Sequence record: OL615011
Origin: Shigella phage vB_SboS_Gloob
DNA length: 64,000 bases
Direction: 5' to 3' (one strand)
This document shows positions 6,056 through 59,518 of the stretch, piece by piece; position 1 is the stretch's first letter; every line of letters starts with the position of its first letter. Position numbers and translations under genes: made by a program. The notes beneath the pieces were generated by a model, which saw only the letters and a list, made by a program, of their open reading frames with translations, did no database searches and had not been told where the DNA came from.

Positions 6056-6493
6056 TCAGCTAATGCGGAACAGATGTGGATAACCACCAGGATGGCCCTG
6101 ACCCGTAACGAACACATCGAACTTAGATCCTTTGATCAGGCCGGGGAGATTACCAGAGTCCAGCAGTTCGCGGATCTGATCCATCGCCAGCATCCAGTTC
6201 TTAGCAGGTTCAGCTTCAGCCTCTCCACGATTGAGGACGAGTTCACCTTCAGAATAATACTTCCCGCTGTCTTTCATATAGTACAGCTTGATATGGATGT
6301 ACTGAGGGGACGGGACCAAACGCCAGCCATCGTCAATCAGATCCTGGCGATCATTATCCAGGGACTGGTAATCGATCTCACCAGACGCCAGACCATAGCT
6401 GCGCATGTAGCGGAACTTCTCAACACGGTCTTTTACGTCAGAGATGAAGAACTCCTTCGTGGCAGGACTGATGAAAATGTATTTCTCTTTTGA
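6056..6493 (-). CDS. hypothetical protein (146 aa from MSKEKYIF)
   Basis: ORF track. Confidence 0.45.
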   Translation of the reverse strand, partial: SKEKYIFISPATKEFFISDVKDRVEKFRYMRSYGLASGEIDYQSLDNDRQDLIDDGWRLVPSPQYIHIKLYYMKDSGKYYSEGELVLNRGEAEAEPAKNWMLAMDQIRELLDSGNLPGLIKGSKFDVFVTGQGHPGGYPHLFRIS

Positions 6494-6513
6494 CATGATA
6501 TAGATCCTTCCTT

Positions 6514-6738
6514 TCAAAGAATGATGTGTTCGTCGATATCGGACTGCGTTGCAATCTCCCAGCGGACGACATTTTCGGTTGTGATGAAATCACGGTTCAG
6601 GTGAGAGGCTGGCACATACACCATCGTGTCGACCATGAAGTAACGCTGCTCGTTGTTCCAGGAGTCAACATAAGCCTCAATAAGGCATACTTCGATCACT
6701 TCGCCTTTCGGCTTCTTCACAGTCTTTTTCAGGTACAT
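6514..6738 (-). CDS. hypothetical protein (about 74 aa)
   Basis: ORF track. Confidence 0.4.
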   Translation of the reverse strand: MYLKKTVKKPKGEVIEVCLIEAYVDSWNNEQRYFMVDTMVYVPASHLNRDFITTENVVRWEIATQSDIDEHIIL

Positions 6739-9217: not shown

Positions 9218-10090
9218 TTAGCCGTTGATGCCGAAGCGACGATTATAGTCGGCCAACTGACGCTTGATAGATTCTTTCAGCTCTTTGTCTGTTTCATCTT
9301 CATCGTCTTTGCCATCATCGTCGCCATCATCGCCTTCTTTCTTAGACTTTTTGCCTTCGTCGACTTTGTCTTTGTCGCCTTTGTTGTCGTCGTCACCGTC
9401 TTTGCCGCCGACTTTGTCCTGGAAGTCGTCATCGTCATCGCCTTCTTTCTTAGCAGACTTACCTTCTACCAGGTTGCGGAAGGTGTGTACGCGGGAAGCG
9501 AATTCGCTTTCGGTGGTGAACTGCACCGCTTCCAGCAGATTGACAACCGTTGCTTTCTTGGTGTCGACCATGCCTTCACAGATACGGGCGATCACAGAGT
9601 CGCGCAGAGTCGCATTCGCGGCTTCTTTGATTTGACGGTTTTCGCTTTCAGCAGCCGCAGCGCGTTGTTCTGCTTCGGTCAGGCGGGCAGTCAGCGCAGC
9701 GATCTGGCCGTTTTCGTCAGTCGCAAAGTTGATACCAGCTTCTTTCAGAACGCCAGTCAGGCCAGTCAGCAGGTTTTCAGCTGCTTCACGCTTGATCTGA
9801 GCATCGATTGCAGGAGCGTTGGTGTTAGCCCACTCTTCTACAACAGCGTTCAGGAAGCTGTCAACTTTGGTTGCGATCTCCATCAAGTGAGACTCTTTCA
9901 GCTGAGCAATCTCAGACTGATGAGCTTCAACCAGACGCAGGCGCTCGACGTTGGCAGCGTTTTCGGTTTCTTGAATAGCGGTCAGGCGAGCGGCTTCTAC
10001 TTTAGATTCCAGCAGGCCAGACACTTTATCCAGGAAGTCGGGGCTGAGGCCGTTAACGCCCTCAAACAGTTTTTGCAATTCAGGTTTCAT
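9218..10090 (-). CDS. prohead scaffolding protein, gp22-like (290 aa)
   Basis: Coiled-coil plus poly-acidic D/E/K low-complexity tail; located between protease and capsid genes as in T4. Confidence 0.65.
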   Translation of the reverse strand: MKPELQKLFEGVNGLSPDFLDKVSGLLESKVEAARLTAIQETENAANVERLRLVEAHQSEIAQLKESHLMEIATKVDSFLNAVVEEWANTNAPAIDAQIKREAAENLLTGLTGVLKEAGINFATDENGQIAALTARLTEAEQRAAAAESENRQIKEAANATLRDSVIARICEGMVDTKKATVVNLLEAVQFTTESEFASRVHTFRNLVEGKSAKKEGDDDDDFQDKVGGKDGDDDNKGDKDKVDEGKKSKKEGDDGDDDGKDDEDETDKELKESIKRQLADYNRRFGING

Positions 10091-10135: not shown

Positions 10136-10804
10136 TCAGCCCAGATGTCTCAATGCGATATCGAGGCGGCGCAGGAAGTCGTCTTCGAACTGAATATTGG
10201 TTTTCACCAATGAATCGACCACTTGCCCTTTGATGTCTTTAGGAACCCAAATCCCCGAAGATTCATCAAGCTGCCATTCAACAGATTCGCTCACAGCCTT
10301 TACATAACAAACTTGTCCAGAAGGACGGTCGACTGCATCAACAGCAGTGAGCATAAAGCCAGGTTGAACGTCGTCATAACCGTTCACCGACTTGGTCTCA
10401 CCAAGGCCACGTGTAGACACGGCCAAGTTGAAGTCTGCTTCAGCCAGAGCACGAATGATCTGGCCTTTTGGTGTATTTAGCACACGCGCTCGACCGATTG
10501 CGTTTGTACCCTCCCAACGGAGGCTCTCGGTCTTCAGCGCAGCTTCAGCAATATCTGGGAAAGGGTAGTCGGGATGTTTGAGTTCACCGATTGCGCGACG
10601 ATCCTGAACATACTCTTTGTCATATGCTTCGACAGCTGGTATGCCCACTTTCTGGAGATCGTAGTTGCGTCCATTACGGTTCACCTGATTACACATCACG
10701 AATGGACCTTCGATGAACATAGCCTTACCCCCGGTGGAGGTCGTGCTTTCACCAATTTGGAGGTCTTTCCCTATCGCCGTGATCTCACGCAACAGTTTCA
10801 TCAT
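10136..10804 (-). CDS. prohead core protease, gp21-like (222 aa)
   Basis: GELKHP, GRARV, STRGLG, AVDAV parallel remembered T4 gp21 motifs; conserved position. Confidence 0.8.
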   Translation of the reverse strand: MMKLLREITAIGKDLQIGESTTSTGGKAMFIEGPFVMCNQVNRNGRNYDLQKVGIPAVEAYDKEYVQDRRAIGELKHPDYPFPDIAEAALKTESLRWEGTNAIGRARVLNTPKGQIIRALAEADFNLAVSTRGLGETKSVNGYDDVQPGFMLTAVDAVDRPSGQVCYVKAVSESVEWQLDESSGIWVPKDIKGQVVDSLVKTNIQFEDDFLRRLDIALRHLG

Positions 10805-33466: not shown

Positions 33467-33507
33467 ATACCCCATAGAGGATTTGCCAATATGGGGTATT
33501 TAGTGAA
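33467..33507 (-). repeat. 41-nt promoter/leader module, copy 2
   Basis: Identical to 31248-31288. Confidence 0.75.
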
Positions 33508-43717: not shown

Positions 43718-44126
43718 TATTAAGGGGCGATAGTTTAAGGGATAGCTGTCCGGACAGCGAATCCTCATAGAGAACGGCTGGGCGGCCAAACCCAGCAGGT
43801 GAGGTGAAAAGCCTCAGACCCCGCCAAATTTGTGTTGAAGAGACGTTGGGTCAGAACCAACTCGCCCGAAAGGGGGATCGTATAGCGGTAATTATGCTTC
43901 GACACAACAGCATTATGGGGAGCACCGATGAGATGAGGGTTCGGGCGAGTTAAGCGACGGCCGATTAAGTCCTGTACTCTGTTCAAGGTGGTCTTAACCT
44001 CCCCACCAAATATTGTTGGACTGCCAGCAAGCTCCGGTCTACGGCAGGCGTGATGGGATCGCGGAATTCAAATACCGCCTTGGGAGCACCTAAATAAACC
44101 AGTTGTTCAATAAACAGTTGGTGAGT

Positions 44127-44327
44127 ATGATGAAAACGTTCGGTGATTTTATTGCTGAGTGGGATGGCCTCGCTACCGACAACAAAGAGATTGTCGAGTT
44201 TGTTGAAAAGCGAGGTGACAAGTGGGTTGTCCTTGACCACACCAAGACGAAGGTTCTTGGTACACATGACACCAAAGCTGACGCTGATGCCCAATTAAGG
44301 GCGATTGAAGCGAACAAGCACGGATAA
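44127..44327 (+). CDS. hypothetical protein (about 66 aa) abutting tRNA-Asn
   Basis: ORF track (track start is TTG at 44103; ATG at 44127). Confidence 0.4.
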   Translation: MMKTFGDFIAEWDGLATDNKEIVEFVEKRGDKWVVLDHTKTKVLGTHDTKADADAQLRAIEANKHG

Positions 44328-47145: not shown

Positions 47146-48444
47146 ATGAACGACAAAACTCAGAAACTTATAGATATCACCAAACAGGCGATAGAAGAAA
47201 ACGCCAGCCCTTTTATCTTTGCTCCATATACCCCGGATGCCCTTATGGGCGACCGCAAAACTATCTTCAATGCTCTCTCGCTTGACCGCAATGTCATCCA
47301 CTGGGAAGACTATCTCTACAAGCACACCCCGTGCGAACTCGTTGCCAACCCCGAAACCAATCAGCAGGTCTGGTTCAAGCGTGAAGATTACTTTGCACCG
47401 CTGTCCAATTACGCAAATGGTCAGCAGGGCATCAATGGCAGTAAGTTGCGCCAGGCCATCTGGCTGATGGTTGAGCACCTGAAGGCCGGAGGTTCCCCTG
47501 ACATCATCCACGGCACTGTCGTTGGTAGTCCGCAATCCCCTATGGCGACGGCAGTCTCTCGGCACTTCGGCGGCAAGACAACCACTGTACTCGGCGCGAC
47601 CAAACCAACCACTTGCATGAACCATGGCATGGTTGAGATGAGCGCCTGGTTCGGCAGTGAGTTCAACTTCGTCGGCTCCGGCTACAACAGCACGATCCAG
47701 CCGCGCTGTAAGAAGCTCATCGAGCAGGTGAATCCAAAGGCGTACTACCTGGAATATGGTATTACCCTGGACCACACAGTGCATTCCCCCGAGCGCATCG
47801 CAGGATTCCATATGCTGGGCGGCGAGCAGGTTGCTAACATCCCGGACCATATCACCGACCTGATCATCCCGGCTGGCTCATGCAACTCATGTACGAGTAT
47901 CCTGACCGGACTGGCGATGCATCCGAAGCCTAATCTGAAGCGTGTGTATCTGATCGGCATCGGTCCGAACCGCCTGGACTTCATTGAGAGCCGCCTGCGC
48001 ATCATCGGCAAACAGGCCAATCTACCGCATATCACAGACTTCACCCGCCGTTATCACGACAACCCAGACTATGTCCACGGCAAGAAGGAGCTTCAGCATG
48101 CCTCTAAGAGCGTTTCGCTGGCTGGCCTCCTAAGTGGTATCAGGCAGAAGGGAGAGCCAGAGGTCGTGCTTCCTCGTTTTGAGGTACACCATTGGGATCT
48201 CCACACCACCAATTGGGTTCGTTACAATGACCTGATGGATTATCAGTGGGGTGATATCGAATTGCACCCGCGTTATGAAGGCAAGGTCATGACCTGGGTC
48301 CAGCAACACAAGCCCGAGTTGCTCAATGAGAACACTCTGTTCTGGATTGTGGGCAGCAAGCCGTACATCGAGCCAATGAAGGCCGCATGCCCTGAGCTGG
48401 CTATCCCAGATGAAGTGAACGTCAACACCTTCACTCCTTCCTGA
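47146..48444 (+). CDS. PLP-dependent fold-type-II enzyme candidate (432 aa)
   Basis: GINGSKLRQAIWLM resembles the GGNKxRKLE lysine loop of the ACC deaminase / D-cysteine desulfhydrase family; by eye. Confidence 0.45.
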   Translation: MNDKTQKLIDITKQAIEENASPFIFAPYTPDALMGDRKTIFNALSLDRNVIHWEDYLYKHTPCELVANPETNQQVWFKREDYFAPLSNYANGQQGINGSKLRQAIWLMVEHLKAGGSPDIIHGTVVGSPQSPMATAVSRHFGGKTTTVLGATKPTTCMNHGMVEMSAWFGSEFNFVGSGYNSTIQPRCKKLIEQVNPKAYYLEYGITLDHTVHSPERIAGFHMLGGEQVANIPDHITDLIIPAGSCNSCTSILTGLAMHPKPNLKRVYLIGIGPNRLDFIESRLRIIGKQANLPHITDFTRRYHDNPDYVHGKKELQHASKSVSLAGLLSGIRQKGEPEVVLPRFEVHHWDLHTTNWVRYNDLMDYQWGDIELHPRYEGKVMTWVQQHKPELLNENTLFWIVGSKPYIEPMKAACPELAIPDEVNVNTFTPS

Positions 48445-48450
48445 TCCCTC

Positions 48451-48461
48451 CTAAATACCCC
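48451..48461 (+). promoter_or_regulatory. late promoter CTAAATACCCC with leader palindrome (ATACCCCA / TGGGGTAT)
   Basis: Exact motif about 22 nt upstream of ATG 48484. Confidence 0.5.
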
Positions 48462-48483
48462 ATACAATCCGTGTGGGGTATCT

Positions 48484-48942
48484 ATGAAAACCTTCCTGCA
48501 ATACCTACAAGAATCAGAACATCCTGTTTTCGGCAACCTGTTGTTGTATCATGGGTCTAATTGTGAATTCGATGAGTTCGACTTCAAGCGCTTCGGTCAG
48601 ACAGACTGCGGTACGCTCGGTCCTGGCTTCTATCTGACTGGGTTAGAAGAAGAGGCGCAGCGTTATGCAGACAACGCTGTCCGATATCGACAGGAAGGGG
48701 AACCCCACGTGATGAGTTTCCGTGTTCGCCTCAACAACCCTATTGTGCTGGATTCCAACAATGCCTCAGCCTGGGAAGACCGGATGAGGGAACTTGGCAT
48801 AGAACCAGGAAAGGTTCACGACAATGCAAAAGAGTTGATGGCTCAGGGCTATGACTCCGTCATCATTATTGATCCGGCGGCTCTGCCTATGGTGAGGGAA
48901 GTTGTTGTGTACAAACCAGGCCTGGCAGTGCGGGAAGCCTAA
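48484..48942 (+). CDS. late-expressed hypothetical protein (152 aa)
   Basis: ORF track; contains LLLYHGSN; function unassigned. Confidence 0.5.
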   Translation: MKTFLQYLQESEHPVFGNLLLYHGSNCEFDEFDFKRFGQTDCGTLGPGFYLTGLEEEAQRYADNAVRYRQEGEPHVMSFRVRLNNPIVLDSNNASAWEDRMRELGIEPGKVHDNAKELMAQGYDSVIIIDPAALPMVREVVVYKPGLAVREA

Positions 48943-48949
48943 ATACCCC
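48939..48949 (+). promoter_or_regulatory. late promoter CTAAATACCCC
   Basis: Exact motif about 28 nt upstream of ATG 48978. Confidence 0.5.
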
Positions 48950-48977
48950 ATATGGCTAACCCACTGAGGAACCCAAC

Positions 48978-49436
48978 ATGCCAACCTCCAAATTGTTTGA
49001 ATCAGAATACACCAATGACATCCCCGTATGGACTGGTGTTCAAGACGGTATCACGATTGAGCTGTTTGATCGTGAAGAGACGGGCGCGGAAGAGATCTAT
49101 GCAGGCGTTGAAGGCACTGATGTTGTTCGCGCCGCCGTAGCCCTTGCCACCTTCCTTGAAGATGCACCGATTGATGGTGTGCCGTTCGAGGCGCACGTAG
49201 ATCCCGAGGATCCAACGTCTATCATTATTACAGTGAATGGGGTGCCATACACTTCGTACAGTATCGAGACGGACGAAGAGGGCAGCGGAGCGCTGTATAT
49301 TGCCACTGACCTGCAGCTGGAAGACGATGAGATGGATTATCTGATTCAGAATGGGGTACTGCCGCCGTTCACCGATGAAGACCTGGACACAGAACTGGCC
49401 GCCGTCGGTGATGATGACGACTTCTGGGAAGAATAA
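48978..49436 (+). CDS. late-expressed strongly acidic protein (152 aa)
   Basis: D+E about 25 percent, almost no K/R; GAGGAA SD. Confidence 0.5.
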   Translation: MPTSKLFESEYTNDIPVWTGVQDGITIELFDREETGAEEIYAGVEGTDVVRAAVALATFLEDAPIDGVPFEAHVDPEDPTSIIITVNGVPYTSYSIETDEEGSGALYIATDLQLEDDEMDYLIQNGVLPPFTDEDLDTELAAVGDDDDFWEE

Positions 49437-58104: not shown

Positions 58105-59314
58105 AATGCCGACGGGATATACACCCCCGGCTGAATGGAAGTACCCGATTGACCTGGCTGTTGACTATCGCAAGCCGGAGAATCGCATGTACCTGCTCAA
58201 GGCTTGGGTGGAGGCGCTGTCCTACACCGAAGAGCACAACCAGCAGATGCGTCTGATGGATTATGCGATCGAAGTCACAGAAGGCATCACGCAGATTGAG
58301 AAGATCGAGCGCAAAATCTGGATGTCGTTCCTTTGGGGCTGCTGTTACAACGCCATCGGACCGTGGACAATCTACAGTGAGTTCCCTGTACCTCCTCAGT
58401 CCAAAGAAGAGATGCAGCGCTTCTCTGATTGGTACAACCTGAACTTTGAACGCATGCGCTTCGATACCGATTGCCGTTACCGCAAGTCCAAGATGATCCC
58501 GTGTGTTCAGTCCTACATTGATTGGCTGGCTGGGCGCTCCCAGATGGATGCTTTCCGCCCGATGTTAGAATTGGATATTCCTGTACACCAATTCACGAAT
58601 TTGTGGGATACGGCGATGTCCTGGAAATACTTCGGCCGCCTGAGCGCCTGGAACTTCCTGGAAGCCCTGAACATGGTGTTTGGCAACATGTGGGAGATTG
58701 ACGTCCCTGGCTTCATGCTGCGTGACCGTGATGGTAGTGAATCCAACCGCAACGGTGCGGCGTTCTTGTCCAACCGTGACGACTGGGTGACTAAGCACGG
58801 GAAGAAAAAGATCAACGGCTGTCCTATCACGGATGAAGAGTGTGACATCCTTGAGGCCGACCTTGAGCAGGCGTTCCAGGATTGTGTGGCCGAGTTCGGG
58901 CATCTGACGTTCATCAATCGCCTGAACTTTGAGACCTCCGGTGCATGCTGGCTGAAGAAGTTCTTCCGTGAAAAGAACACCCGTTACATTGGTTGGGATG
59001 CCGAGCGTACCTGGGATGAGATCGACTACATGGAACGCATCTGGCCGGAGTACTCCTGCGCAGCGCTCTGGGAAGCCCGTTCACTCTGGCTACCAGATAC
59101 CCTGTTGTGCGAAAAGGCTCCTCCAGGGCACGTTCCAGGCGTCCAGAAGTGGAAGATGCCTGTGTTCTTTGAGACTGGCGTTCCTCTACATATCTGGCAT
59201 CTGCAAAAGGGTACGCGCTGGGAGCCTGGCCAGGTGTATCGAGAATTGGGTAAACCGAAGATTGATAAACCGAAGTCCAACAGCGTCAACCTCATGGCAC
59301 TCTTGAAACGCTGA
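58088..59314 (+). CDS. hypothetical enzyme-sized protein (408 aa), candidate DNA base-modification transferase
   Basis: Size and neighbourhood only; no motif recognised. Confidence 0.3.
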   Translation: MTHLSKMPTGYTPPAEWKYPIDLAVDYRKPENRMYLLKAWVEALSYTEEHNQQMRLMDYAIEVTEGITQIEKIERKIWMSFLWGCCYNAIGPWTIYSEFPVPPQSKEEMQRFSDWYNLNFERMRFDTDCRYRKSKMIPCVQSYIDWLAGRSQMDAFRPMLELDIPVHQFTNLWDTAMSWKYFGRLSAWNFLEALNMVFGNMWEIDVPGFMLRDRDGSESNRNGAAFLSNRDDWVTKHGKKKINGCPITDEECDILEADLEQAFQDCVAEFGHLTFINRLNFETSGACWLKKFFREKNTRYIGWDAERTWDEIDYMERIWPEYSCAALWEARSLWLPDTLLCEKAPPGHVPGVQKWKMPVFFETGVPLHIWHLQKGTRWEPGQVYRELGKPKIDKPKSNSVNLMALLKR

Positions 59315-59350
59315 TATAAATATCCTCGCCTATAAAGTGAGGATATTATC

Positions 59351-59518
59351 ATGTTACAAGATCTGTTGGTCTACGCACTTCCGGGTGTGGTTGTTGGATT
59401 CATCGCAGGTGCTCTGGTCTTCCGTAAACACGCGCAAGACGGTGAAGTGATTGTTCAAAAGGGTAAAGACATCCTGGAACAAATCGAAGCCAAACTGGAA
59501 GAGCTGAAGAAAAAGTAA
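59351..59518 (+). CDS. small membrane protein (55 aa)
   Basis: GTGAGGA SD; TM segment LVYALPGVVVGFIAGALVF; too short for the ORF track. Confidence 0.4.
   Translation: MLQDLLVYALPGVVVGFIAGALVFRKHAQDGEVIVQKGKDILEQIEAKLEELKKK

Follow-up and report, generated by a model that had tools for sequence, protein, structure and literature searches.

A two-gene late cassette in a Shigella phage is predicted to encode a packaged ADP-ribosyltransferase and a conserved head-associated acidic protein

T4 Alt, an ADP-ribosyltransferase (ART), is made late in infection, enters the prohead core, has its N-terminal propeptide removed by the protease gp21, and is ejected with the DNA, although it is dispensable (PMC9026906, PMC5512222). 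The T4 internal proteins enter the prohead by means of the decapeptide MKTYQEFIAE, which is removed by gp21 (PMC8442874). gp21 cleaves after L/I-x-E (PMC9026906). Head-packaged ARTs in myoviruses have been predicted in general terms (PMC5512222, PMC9503650), and polyvalent proteins with ART-PolyVal domains are predicted to be delivered with the invading DNA (PMC5512222). Here we analysed a stretch of 64,000 nucleotides from Shigella phage vB_SboS_Gloob (OL615011), referred to below as the window, and in it two adjacent genes at positions 48451-49436. We propose that they form a late virion-cargo cassette, encoding an ART that is packaged and ejected and a conserved acidic protein associated with the head. 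We estimate the probability of this whole reading at about 0.6.

By sequence, the phage is an Agtrevirus-like, ViI-like member of the Ackermannviridae. The backbone of the window is ~96% identical in nucleotide sequence to the Agtrevirus phages MK-13, AG3, SKML-39 and P46FS4. Both genes are on the plus strand, encode proteins of 152 residues, and each follows an exact copy of CTAAATACCCC; these open reading frames (ORFs) and motif sites, first pointed out in a sequence-only reading of the DNA, were reproduced here. The elements of the locus are as follows.

48451..48461, plus strand: late promoter 1, an exact match to CTAAATACCCC, kept in four genera and annotated as 'putative late promoter' in phage LIMEstone1
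48455..48481, plus strand: RNA hairpin of 11 bp in the leader of the ART gene, from RNA folding and conservation across genera
48484..48942, plus strand: ART gene (gene 1), 152 residues
48484..48513, plus strand: decapeptide MKTFLQYLQE, a candidate capsid targeting sequence (CTS), from its likeness to the T4 CTS and its L-x-E site, with a predicted cut between E10 and S11
48939..48949, plus strand: late promoter 2, an exact match to CTAAATACCCC, annotated in LIMEstone1 and conserved across genera
48966..48970, plus strand: Shine-Dalgarno sequence GAGGA of the acidic-protein gene, from sequence
48978..49436, plus strand: acidic-protein gene, 152 residues
49439..49459, both strands: bidirectional intrinsic terminator at the end of the two-gene late unit and of the convergent minus-strand genes, also a terminator in the annotation of LIMEstone1 and of phage KWBSE43-6

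The gene 1 protein matches the ART-PolyVal family (PF18760) over residues 19-144, with a score of 46.6 bits (cut-off 31.2) and E = 7.8e-12. Its score against DUF3990, a related ART family, is just under the cut-off. A Kuttervirus orthologue is named 'ART-PolyVal-like domain-containing protein' in UniRef. Iyer et al. (2017, PMC5512222) defined the ART-PolyVal active site by a strand-1 His, a strand-2 Tyr and a strand-5 Asp. The equivalent residues in gene 1 are H23 in LLLYHGSN (codon 48550-48552), Y50 in GFYLT (48631-48633) and D124 in GYDS (48853-48855). They are invariant in an alignment of 18 family members, and also in comparison with the ART domains of two polyvalent proteins of 2,793 and 3,422 residues. 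An AlphaFold2 (AF2) model places them on predicted strands 16-25, 46-52 and 125-130. The segment LLLYHGSN (residues 19-26), for which the sequence-only reading had no meaning, is strand 1 of the predicted ART fold and carries H23, the putative catalytic, NAD-binding residue. An H-Y-E triad with E139 was also considered. E139 is invariant in the family, but it is a Q in a bona fide polyvalent ART in which D124 is kept. Because E139 is not conserved outside the family and D124 is invariant, the triad was revised to H-Y-D.

The gene 1 protein is a single domain of 152 residues, and its nearest relatives outside the family reside in proteins of 2,793 and 3,422 residues. It thus represents the ART-PolyVal domain on its own, not embedded in a large multi-domain polyvalent protein. 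Based on sequence and predicted fold, we assign it as a stand-alone, single-domain ART-PolyVal ADP-ribosyltransferase of the Tox-ART-HYD2 clade. Its size is 17 kDa and its pI is 4.9. No match to Alt-type ARTs was found in Pfam or PHROG, and a search of PDB sequences with the ART profile produced chance matches only.

The AF2 model of the ART has a predicted local distance difference test score (pLDDT) of 84.7. ART folds account almost exclusively for its top 50 Foldseek matches, with probabilities up to 1.00. The top match is MbcT, and the others include a pre-ejectosome protein of cyanophage A4, PARP1/2/4, tankyrases, exotoxin A, diphtheria toxin, ParT and NatT. Residues 20-82 also match the PADLOC candidate defence proteins PDC-M13A/B and PDC-M10A (E down to 2.5e-7). 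Because the N-terminal half of the ART matches these proteins, host defences may also make use of related small ARTs (DUF3990-like).

The decapeptide at the N-terminus of the ART resembles the T4 CTS. In a family that diverges to 57% identity as a whole, no member departs from M1, T3 or F4, K2 and L5 are almost invariant, and the N-terminal consensus is MKTFLEFxxE. In the AF2 model, a helix spanning residues 4-10 is set apart from the ART core that follows it. A six-frame translation of the window and LIMEstone1 (406,471 residues) was scanned for MK.[FY].[DEQ][FY][LIFVY].[EDH], a pattern partly derived from these same sequences. It occurs six times, in all six cases at the ATG of an annotated gene. 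Two of the occurrences are the ART genes, one in each genome. At least four gene families of these phages begin with the motif; the other occurrences, and a late-like motif near one of them, are as follows.

44130..44327, plus strand: ORF of 65 residues starting MKTFGDFIAE, 7/10 identical to the T4 CTS; it matches phrog_3684 and is a gene (hypothetical) in MK-13
44090..44100, plus strand: late-like motif CTAAATAAACC before the 65-residue ORF
LIMEstone1 (HE600015), 6316-6549: ORF007, starting MKGFQDFLED
LIMEstone1 (HE600015), 58789-59358: ORF080, starting MKPFIQYFNE
LIMEstone1 (HE600015), 129807-129992: ORF167, a homologue of the 65-residue ORF, starting MKSFSDYLNE

ORF080 is a virion protein confirmed by mass spectrometry (MS) and has a late promoter. 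Among its 30 homologues, 29 start with MK[PTSK]F.[QEDN][YFH][FLYM].E, the exception being P0083 (MLKF), and E10 is invariant in all 30. The 65-residue ORF adjoins a tRNA cluster and is a candidate small packaged internal protein.

The presumed partners of such a tag are encoded in the window. The T4-like structural module is complete there, with genes for the major capsid protein, the prohead protease, the scaffold, portal, tube and sheath, the terminase and the tailspikes. As for T4 head cargo, a tag of ~10 residues ending in L/I-x-E is found together with a gp21-type protease and a gp22-type scaffold in the same phage.

10136..10804, minus strand: prohead serine protease of T4 gp21 type, the presumed processing enzyme (Peptidase_S77, PF03420, E = 2.1e-30)
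9218..10090, minus strand: scaffolding core protein of T4 gp22 type, the presumed docking partner of CTS cargo (T4_CASP, PF25623, E = 5.4e-44)

Both genes are preceded by sequences expected to drive late expression. CTAAATACCCC consists of a T4 TATAAATA-type -10 element and a CCCC extension. With at most one mismatch, 8 copies are found in the window against 0.6 expected, a number that none of 100 shuffles reached. The remaining exact copies are located before tailspike and virion genes and uvsW. Late promoter 2 encloses the ART stop codon TAA (48940-48942). Phages of Limestonevirus, Kuttervirus and Taipeivirus, and further Agtrevirus phages, also have the motif 5' of both genes; 5' of the acidic-protein gene, Kuttervirus has the variant CTAAATATCCC. 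In the LIMEstone1 annotation both sites are late promoters, and homologues of the late-transcription proteins gp55 and gp33 are encoded too. The late expression proposed in the sequence-only reading is supported by this annotation and conservation.

Late promoter 1 is also part of a hairpin in the ART leader. The 5' arm, AUACCCCAUAC, is the promoter itself (its ATACCCCATAC), and the 3' arm, GUGUGGGGUAU, contains a Shine-Dalgarno-like GGGG 5 nucleotides from the ATG. The read-through RNA (48440-48500) has a predicted folding energy of -18.1 kcal/mol (z = -4.7), and none of 200 shuffles was equally stable. RNA from 48463 onward is predicted to be unstructured (-5 kcal/mol, z = +0.5). Across four genera the stems are kept, the loops are variable, and one G.U pair is changed to A-U. 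The T4 genes e, soc, 49 and I-TevI have a like arrangement: a hairpin sequesters the Shine-Dalgarno sequence and AUG of early read-through RNA, its 5' arm includes the late promoter, and late transcripts do not contain this arm (PMC3014915). No sequestering hairpin is predicted in the leader of the acidic-protein gene (fold z = -1.9 and +0.1), so its GAGGA is open.

Promoter-embedded CCCC:GGGG hairpins are also found at the late promoters at 33503, 31284, 3972 and 786, all on the minus strand. The recurrent pairing is between CCCC(AUA) of CTAAATACCCC and a downstream (UAU)GGGG in the Shine-Dalgarno or start region, with energies of -8 to -18.6 kcal/mol. The leader of the ORF behind 44090 (plus strand) forms an analogous hairpin from sequence just 3' of its promoter, without CCCC:GGGG pairing. 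The 'cCcc' in the late-promoter consensus of Ackermannviridae may serve partly to silence read-through transcripts. We also considered the ART leader hairpin as an intrinsic terminator of the upstream gene. It has no U-tract, and a terminator scan of the window made no call there. In Taipeivirus the hairpin is followed by a U-rich run and annotated as a terminator, the case being Escherichia phage KWBSE43-6 (L012, 672-696; ARNOLD, -11.1). In some genera the structure may have a second function, attenuating or terminating transcription of the upstream gene.

Orthologues of both proteins have been found in virions of two phages, LIMEstone1 and the Kuttervirus Sajous1, according to the literature and record annotation. 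LIMEstone1 ORF173 is the ART orthologue (99.3% amino acid and 97.6% nucleotide identity) and ORF174 the acidic orthologue (98% amino acid identity). For both, the record (HE600015; Adriaenssens et al. 2012, PMC3296691) reads 'unknown structural protein; confirmed structural protein', and MS coverages are 11.84% for ORF173 and 12.5% for ORF174 (PMC3296691). Each figure is exactly that of a single tryptic peptide, residues 83-100 in the ART and residues 33-51 in the acidic protein, both within the predicted mature parts. All 12 of the 12 unknown structural proteins of LIMEstone1 have structural counterparts in ViI (PMC3296691). In the published MS of CsCl-purified Sajous1 virions, gp116 was detected with 10 spectra and gp115 with 31; by sequence, we identified gp116 as the ART orthologue and gp115 as the acidic orthologue. 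Because the 31 spectra come from a protein with only two MS-friendly tryptic peptides, they suggest that the acidic protein is a fairly abundant virion component.

These data also bear on the possibility that the ART is a late intracellular enzyme, acting by modification of host or phage proteins or by NAD+ consumption, and that its detection in virions is carry-over. The single LIMEstone1 peptide comes from a list that includes the non-structural proteins rIIB, ligase, PhoH and gp44 (PMC3296691), and the Sajous1 authors caution that proteins with low counts are possible contaminants. The ART is also dispensable, being deleted in MK-13, SKML-39 and others; however, T4 Alt is likewise dispensable and yet packaged. 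Two independent laboratories detected the ART in two genera, and a ViI counterpart was reported. Its CTS-like tag is common to another virion protein family confirmed by MS, and its expression is predicted to be strictly from a late promoter, alongside a second virion protein. We consider carry-over unlikely. The orthologues found in virions, together with the CTS-like tag, agree with the virion association that the sequence-only reading had proposed for both genes.

The acidic protein contains 40 D+E among 152 residues (26.3%) and 3 K+R, giving a net charge of -37 and a pI of 4.05. The sequence-only estimate of about 25% Asp+Glu with almost no basic residues was accurate, and the protein is the most acidic among window ORFs of at least 100 residues. 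In the AF2 model (pLDDT 75.8), residues 16-112 form a beta-rich core, and helices are predicted at 49-61 and 116-125. A disordered acidic tail is predicted at the C-terminus, with an invariant D-F-W at the end. The N-terminus is also conserved, as M-x-x-S-K-L-F-E-S-E, in which S4, L6 and F7 do not vary. Potential sites in it are L-F-E8 and E-S-E10, and it is reminiscent of MKPELQKLFE, the N-terminus of the scaffold. The case for a processing tag here is weaker than for the ART, judged from these sequences. In the acidic orthologue of Salmonella phage Vi01 (P0047), residues ~41-60 are scrambled, with EEIMHRYRARMCPRCRSPCNVLRRRPIDG instead of the EEIYASVQGTDVVRAAVALATFLEDAPIDG of all other homologues. 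A sequencing error in the record, or a compensated frameshift, is the apparent cause.

The protein matches phrog_3852. No match was found in Pfam, NCBIfam or PADLOC, and no sequence or fold relative among solved and predicted structures. An exhaustive HMMER search of 1.84 billion proteins returned 8 representatives, one of them a repetitive protein of 559 residues that matches over a short stretch only. The possibility that it is a paralogue of the scaffold, which the sequence-only reading had named as an outcome that would overturn its proposal, was rejected: the hhalign probability is 0.3%, and the match is limited to a 7-residue DDDDF stretch. Two short likenesses between these proteins were observed, GDDDDDFQ in the scaffold (residues ~216-223) with GDDDDFWEE at the end of the acidic protein (residues 144-150), and QKLFE at the N-terminus of the scaffold with SKLFE. 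They could be shared short linear motifs or chance.

The two genes differ in distribution. There are 277 phage records with the acidic protein and, nested among them, 228 with the ART (some non-Ackermannviridae). The acidic-protein records are almost only from Ackermannviridae and comprise phages of Salmonella, Klebsiella, Escherichia, Dickeya, Serratia, Shigella, Erwinia and others. The ART is present in at most one record each from Shigella, Serratia and Erwinia phages, and in 20 of 44 Klebsiella phages. Between genera the acidic protein is 75-80% identical and the ART ~62%. In MK-13 the ART is deleted, and the acidic-protein gene is 100% identical to that in the window. Because the acidic-protein gene is in more records than the ART gene and is kept in MK-13 without it, we conclude that it is a core gene independent of the ART.

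This independence argues against a role of the acidic protein dedicated to the ART, as its cognate inhibitor, its immunity factor or a chaperone for its packaging, which would silence the enzyme in the producing cell or bring it into the head. Such a role would fit the arrangement of the genes, an adjacent pair that is co-transcribed and lacks an intervening terminator, and the per-genus counts, in which the ART is never without the acidic-protein gene. Toxin ARTs are often paired with small acidic immunity proteins. The open ribosome-binding site of the acidic-protein gene could also allow read-through RNA to yield the acidic protein before the ART. However, co-occurrence is not strict in the other direction: the acidic-protein gene stays where the ART is deleted, and is highly conserved in roughly 50-60 records without the ART, including those of the Serratia, Erwinia and Shigella host groups and about half of the Klebsiella phages. 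The acidic protein is also better conserved than the ART, and seemingly more abundant in virions (31 versus 10 spectra). We regard a role as ART partner as very unlikely.

The sequence-only reading had instead proposed that the acidic protein is a DNA mimic. It would then reach the cell along with the DNA and inhibit restriction or other DNA-binding defence proteins, in the way of Ocr or ArdA. Its extreme negative charge is in line with this proposal, as are its conserved acidic tail and its presence in virions, from which it could act before phage gene expression. However, it is a strongly conserved core gene in all genera, and counter-defence genes are usually patchy and fast-evolving; the strong conservation argues against a typical arms-race anti-restriction effector. 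The DNA of Ackermannviridae is also hypermodified already, and a review regards this modification as protection against nucleases. The proposal was drawn from composition, and we do not adopt it for a core gene that has no fold relative and is not early-expressed; we assign it a low probability. A conserved role in the head is favoured over both an anti-restriction effector and a dedicated ART partner.

The ART gene in the window has a different history from its surroundings. The ART body (48452-48923) is 97-99% identical in nucleotide sequence to Limestonevirus, versus 82-94% for the flanks, and other Agtrevirus ART alleles are ~75% identical to it. By diagnostic positions, the crossovers fall in or beside the two late promoters, and the 15-mer CCTAAATACCCCATA is common to both. 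By these comparisons, the ART cassette is a Limestonevirus-type allele swapped into an Agtrevirus backbone between the two promoters, and the repeated promoter and leader sequences may act as cassette-exchange sites. The closest relatives, MK-13, SKML-39, P46FS4 and others, carry an internal deletion of ~400 nucleotides in the native ART allele between CGTGAG repeats. In MK-13 (L003, 4453-4560) part of the native allele survives along with the promoter and the hairpin, with the deletion between the repeats and an additional 1-nucleotide loss.

The following sequence of events is consistent with these observations. On read-through RNA the promoter sequence would pair with the ART ribosome-binding site, and transcripts begun at the late promoter, without the 5' arm, would leave this site free, so that the ART would be translated from late mRNA only. 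MKTFLQYLQE would dock the ART on the gp22-type prohead scaffolding core, and the gp21-type protease would clip it after L-Q-E10. The trimmed ART of roughly 16 kDa would stay in the head, rather than the tail, and be ejected with the DNA. It would then ADP-ribosylate one or more host targets at the start of the next infection, before phage gene expression. The acidic-protein gene would be co-transcribed with the ART gene and also transcribed from its own late promoter. Its product would be a head-associated, non-enzymatic polyanion of the core or interior, possibly processed at K-L-F-E8.

A number of observations weigh against this proposal. Among the ART data, the Foldseek E-values are modest, ~1e-3, and because the top structural match, MbcT, is an NAD+ phosphorylase, we keep in play that the ART may instead use NAD-consuming or nucleic-acid-modifying chemistry. 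E10 of the tag is replaced by D, H, G, A or S in several metagenomic ART homologues, and T4 CTS cargo is basic, whereas the ART is acidic. In the leader, the late transcription start at 48463 is taken from T4 spacing, and there is the Taipeivirus terminator annotation described above. The virion data include the LIMEstone1 identifications from one peptide per protein, in a list with non-structural proteins. A very acidic protein in a DNA-filled head is electrostatically awkward, and positive evidence was found for no particular function of it. Cleavage, head location, ejection and enzymatic activity are predictions for the members of both families.

A broader reading joins the tag and the acidic protein. 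Ackermannviridae would keep the T4 CTS as a label, M-K-x-F-x-[EQD]-[FY]-[LF]-x-E, for swappable injected effectors, which would be ejected together with an acidic polyanion. The candidate effectors are the ART, the 65-residue protein at 44130-44327, and the LIMEstone1 ORF007 and ORF080 families. Recombination at repeated late-promoter and leader sequences would carry their cassettes from one genus to another. The acidic protein would be an abundant polyanion of new fold, acting on host DNA-binding proteins or on proteins that partner with single-stranded DNA-binding protein. We hold this joint reading as doubtful.

The neighbourhood of the two genes is mixed. The sequence-only reading placed them amid early-type genes. 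This is accurate only in part: a late-promoter operon two genes upstream includes a virion 'tail needle knob' protein, and the structural module is in the same window. The neighbours are a gene for a pyridoxal phosphate (PLP)-dependent enzyme upstream of the ART gene and a DNA polymerase gene downstream of the pair. The PLP-dependent enzyme gene (47146-48444, plus strand) is directly upstream of the ART gene; it matches PALP below the Pfam cut-off and phrog_3650. Because nearby genes in relatives are annotated as aGPT-pyrophosphorylase and P-loop nucleotide kinase, this enzyme is probably part of a ViI-like pathway of thymidine hypermodification.

The presence of both proteins in virions is already in GenBank and the literature, and the ART domain label is already in UniRef. 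In the literature searched, we did not find a description of the CTS-like tag family, the T4-type prohead protease and scaffold of the window, the promoter-embedded hairpin at the ribosome-binding site, the link between domain identity and proteomics, or the cassette swap, and no paper joined 'capsid targeting sequence' to an Ackermannviridae term. Nor did the papers searched describe, for any Ackermannviridae phage, an ART that is ejected into the host and modifies its proteins directly after infection. Ackermannviridae of the ViI, CBA120 and LIMEstone types are common biocontrol and detection phages, and half of their genes are unannotated. The proposed packaged ART is a concrete candidate for the first step of host takeover in this family, and it would extend the T4 Alt paradigm to another ART clade, as Iyer et al. 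predicted generally. If the T4-like tag functions as proposed, it would provide a handle for loading foreign proteins into Ackermannviridae capsids. The ART-minus relatives of the MK-13, SKML-39 and AG3 type are natural near-isogenic controls. The acidic protein is a conserved, probably abundant virion component whose predicted structure matched no known fold.

The closest described genes are LIMEstone1 ORF173 and ORF174, which are direct orthologues with the same two late promoters and terminator. The LIMEstone1 record assigns them no function, domain, targeting signal or leader structure, and its backbone is Limestonevirus, whereas that of the window is Agtrevirus.

Compared to T4 Alt, which is ~76 kDa, the gene 1 protein is similarly represented in purified virions, by its orthologues LIMEstone1 ORF173 and Sajous1 gp116. 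T4 Alt belongs to the Alt/VIP2 clade and has an R-S-E active site, and the gene 1 protein has H-Y-D instead. The two have no sequence relation beyond the ART fold, so the gene 1 protein is an analogue and not a clade-level homologue; in function, with the same proposed mode of action, it could be the counterpart of T4 Alt, built on another ART clade. The ART-PolyVal domains (PF18760; Iyer et al. 2017) share the hidden Markov model match and the H-Y-D triad with it. In the polyvalent proteins these domains are fused to MuF, MPTase or other head-resident domains, whereas the gene 1 protein has an apparent T4-type CTS. IPI, IPII and IPIII, which are internal proteins of T4, carry a similar tag, M-K-T-[YF]-x-[EQ]-[FY]-[IL]-x-E, on unrelated small cargo. 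They are basic and DNA-associated, and the Ackermannviridae cargo here is acidic (pI 4.9), with processing and packaging predicted.

The leaders of T4 e, soc, 49 and I-TevI have the same design as the ART leader, with the promoter in the 5' arm. The ART leader differs in its promoter variant CTAAATACCCC, whose CCCC pairs with the GGGG of the Shine-Dalgarno sequence, and the design recurs in the genome. Ocr, ArdA and Arn resemble the acidic protein in their very low pI, few basic residues and acidic surface; no homology or fold match to them was found for the acidic protein. They are expressed early, whereas the acidic protein is late, is encoded by a family-wide core gene, and has a predicted beta-rich core with a disordered tail.

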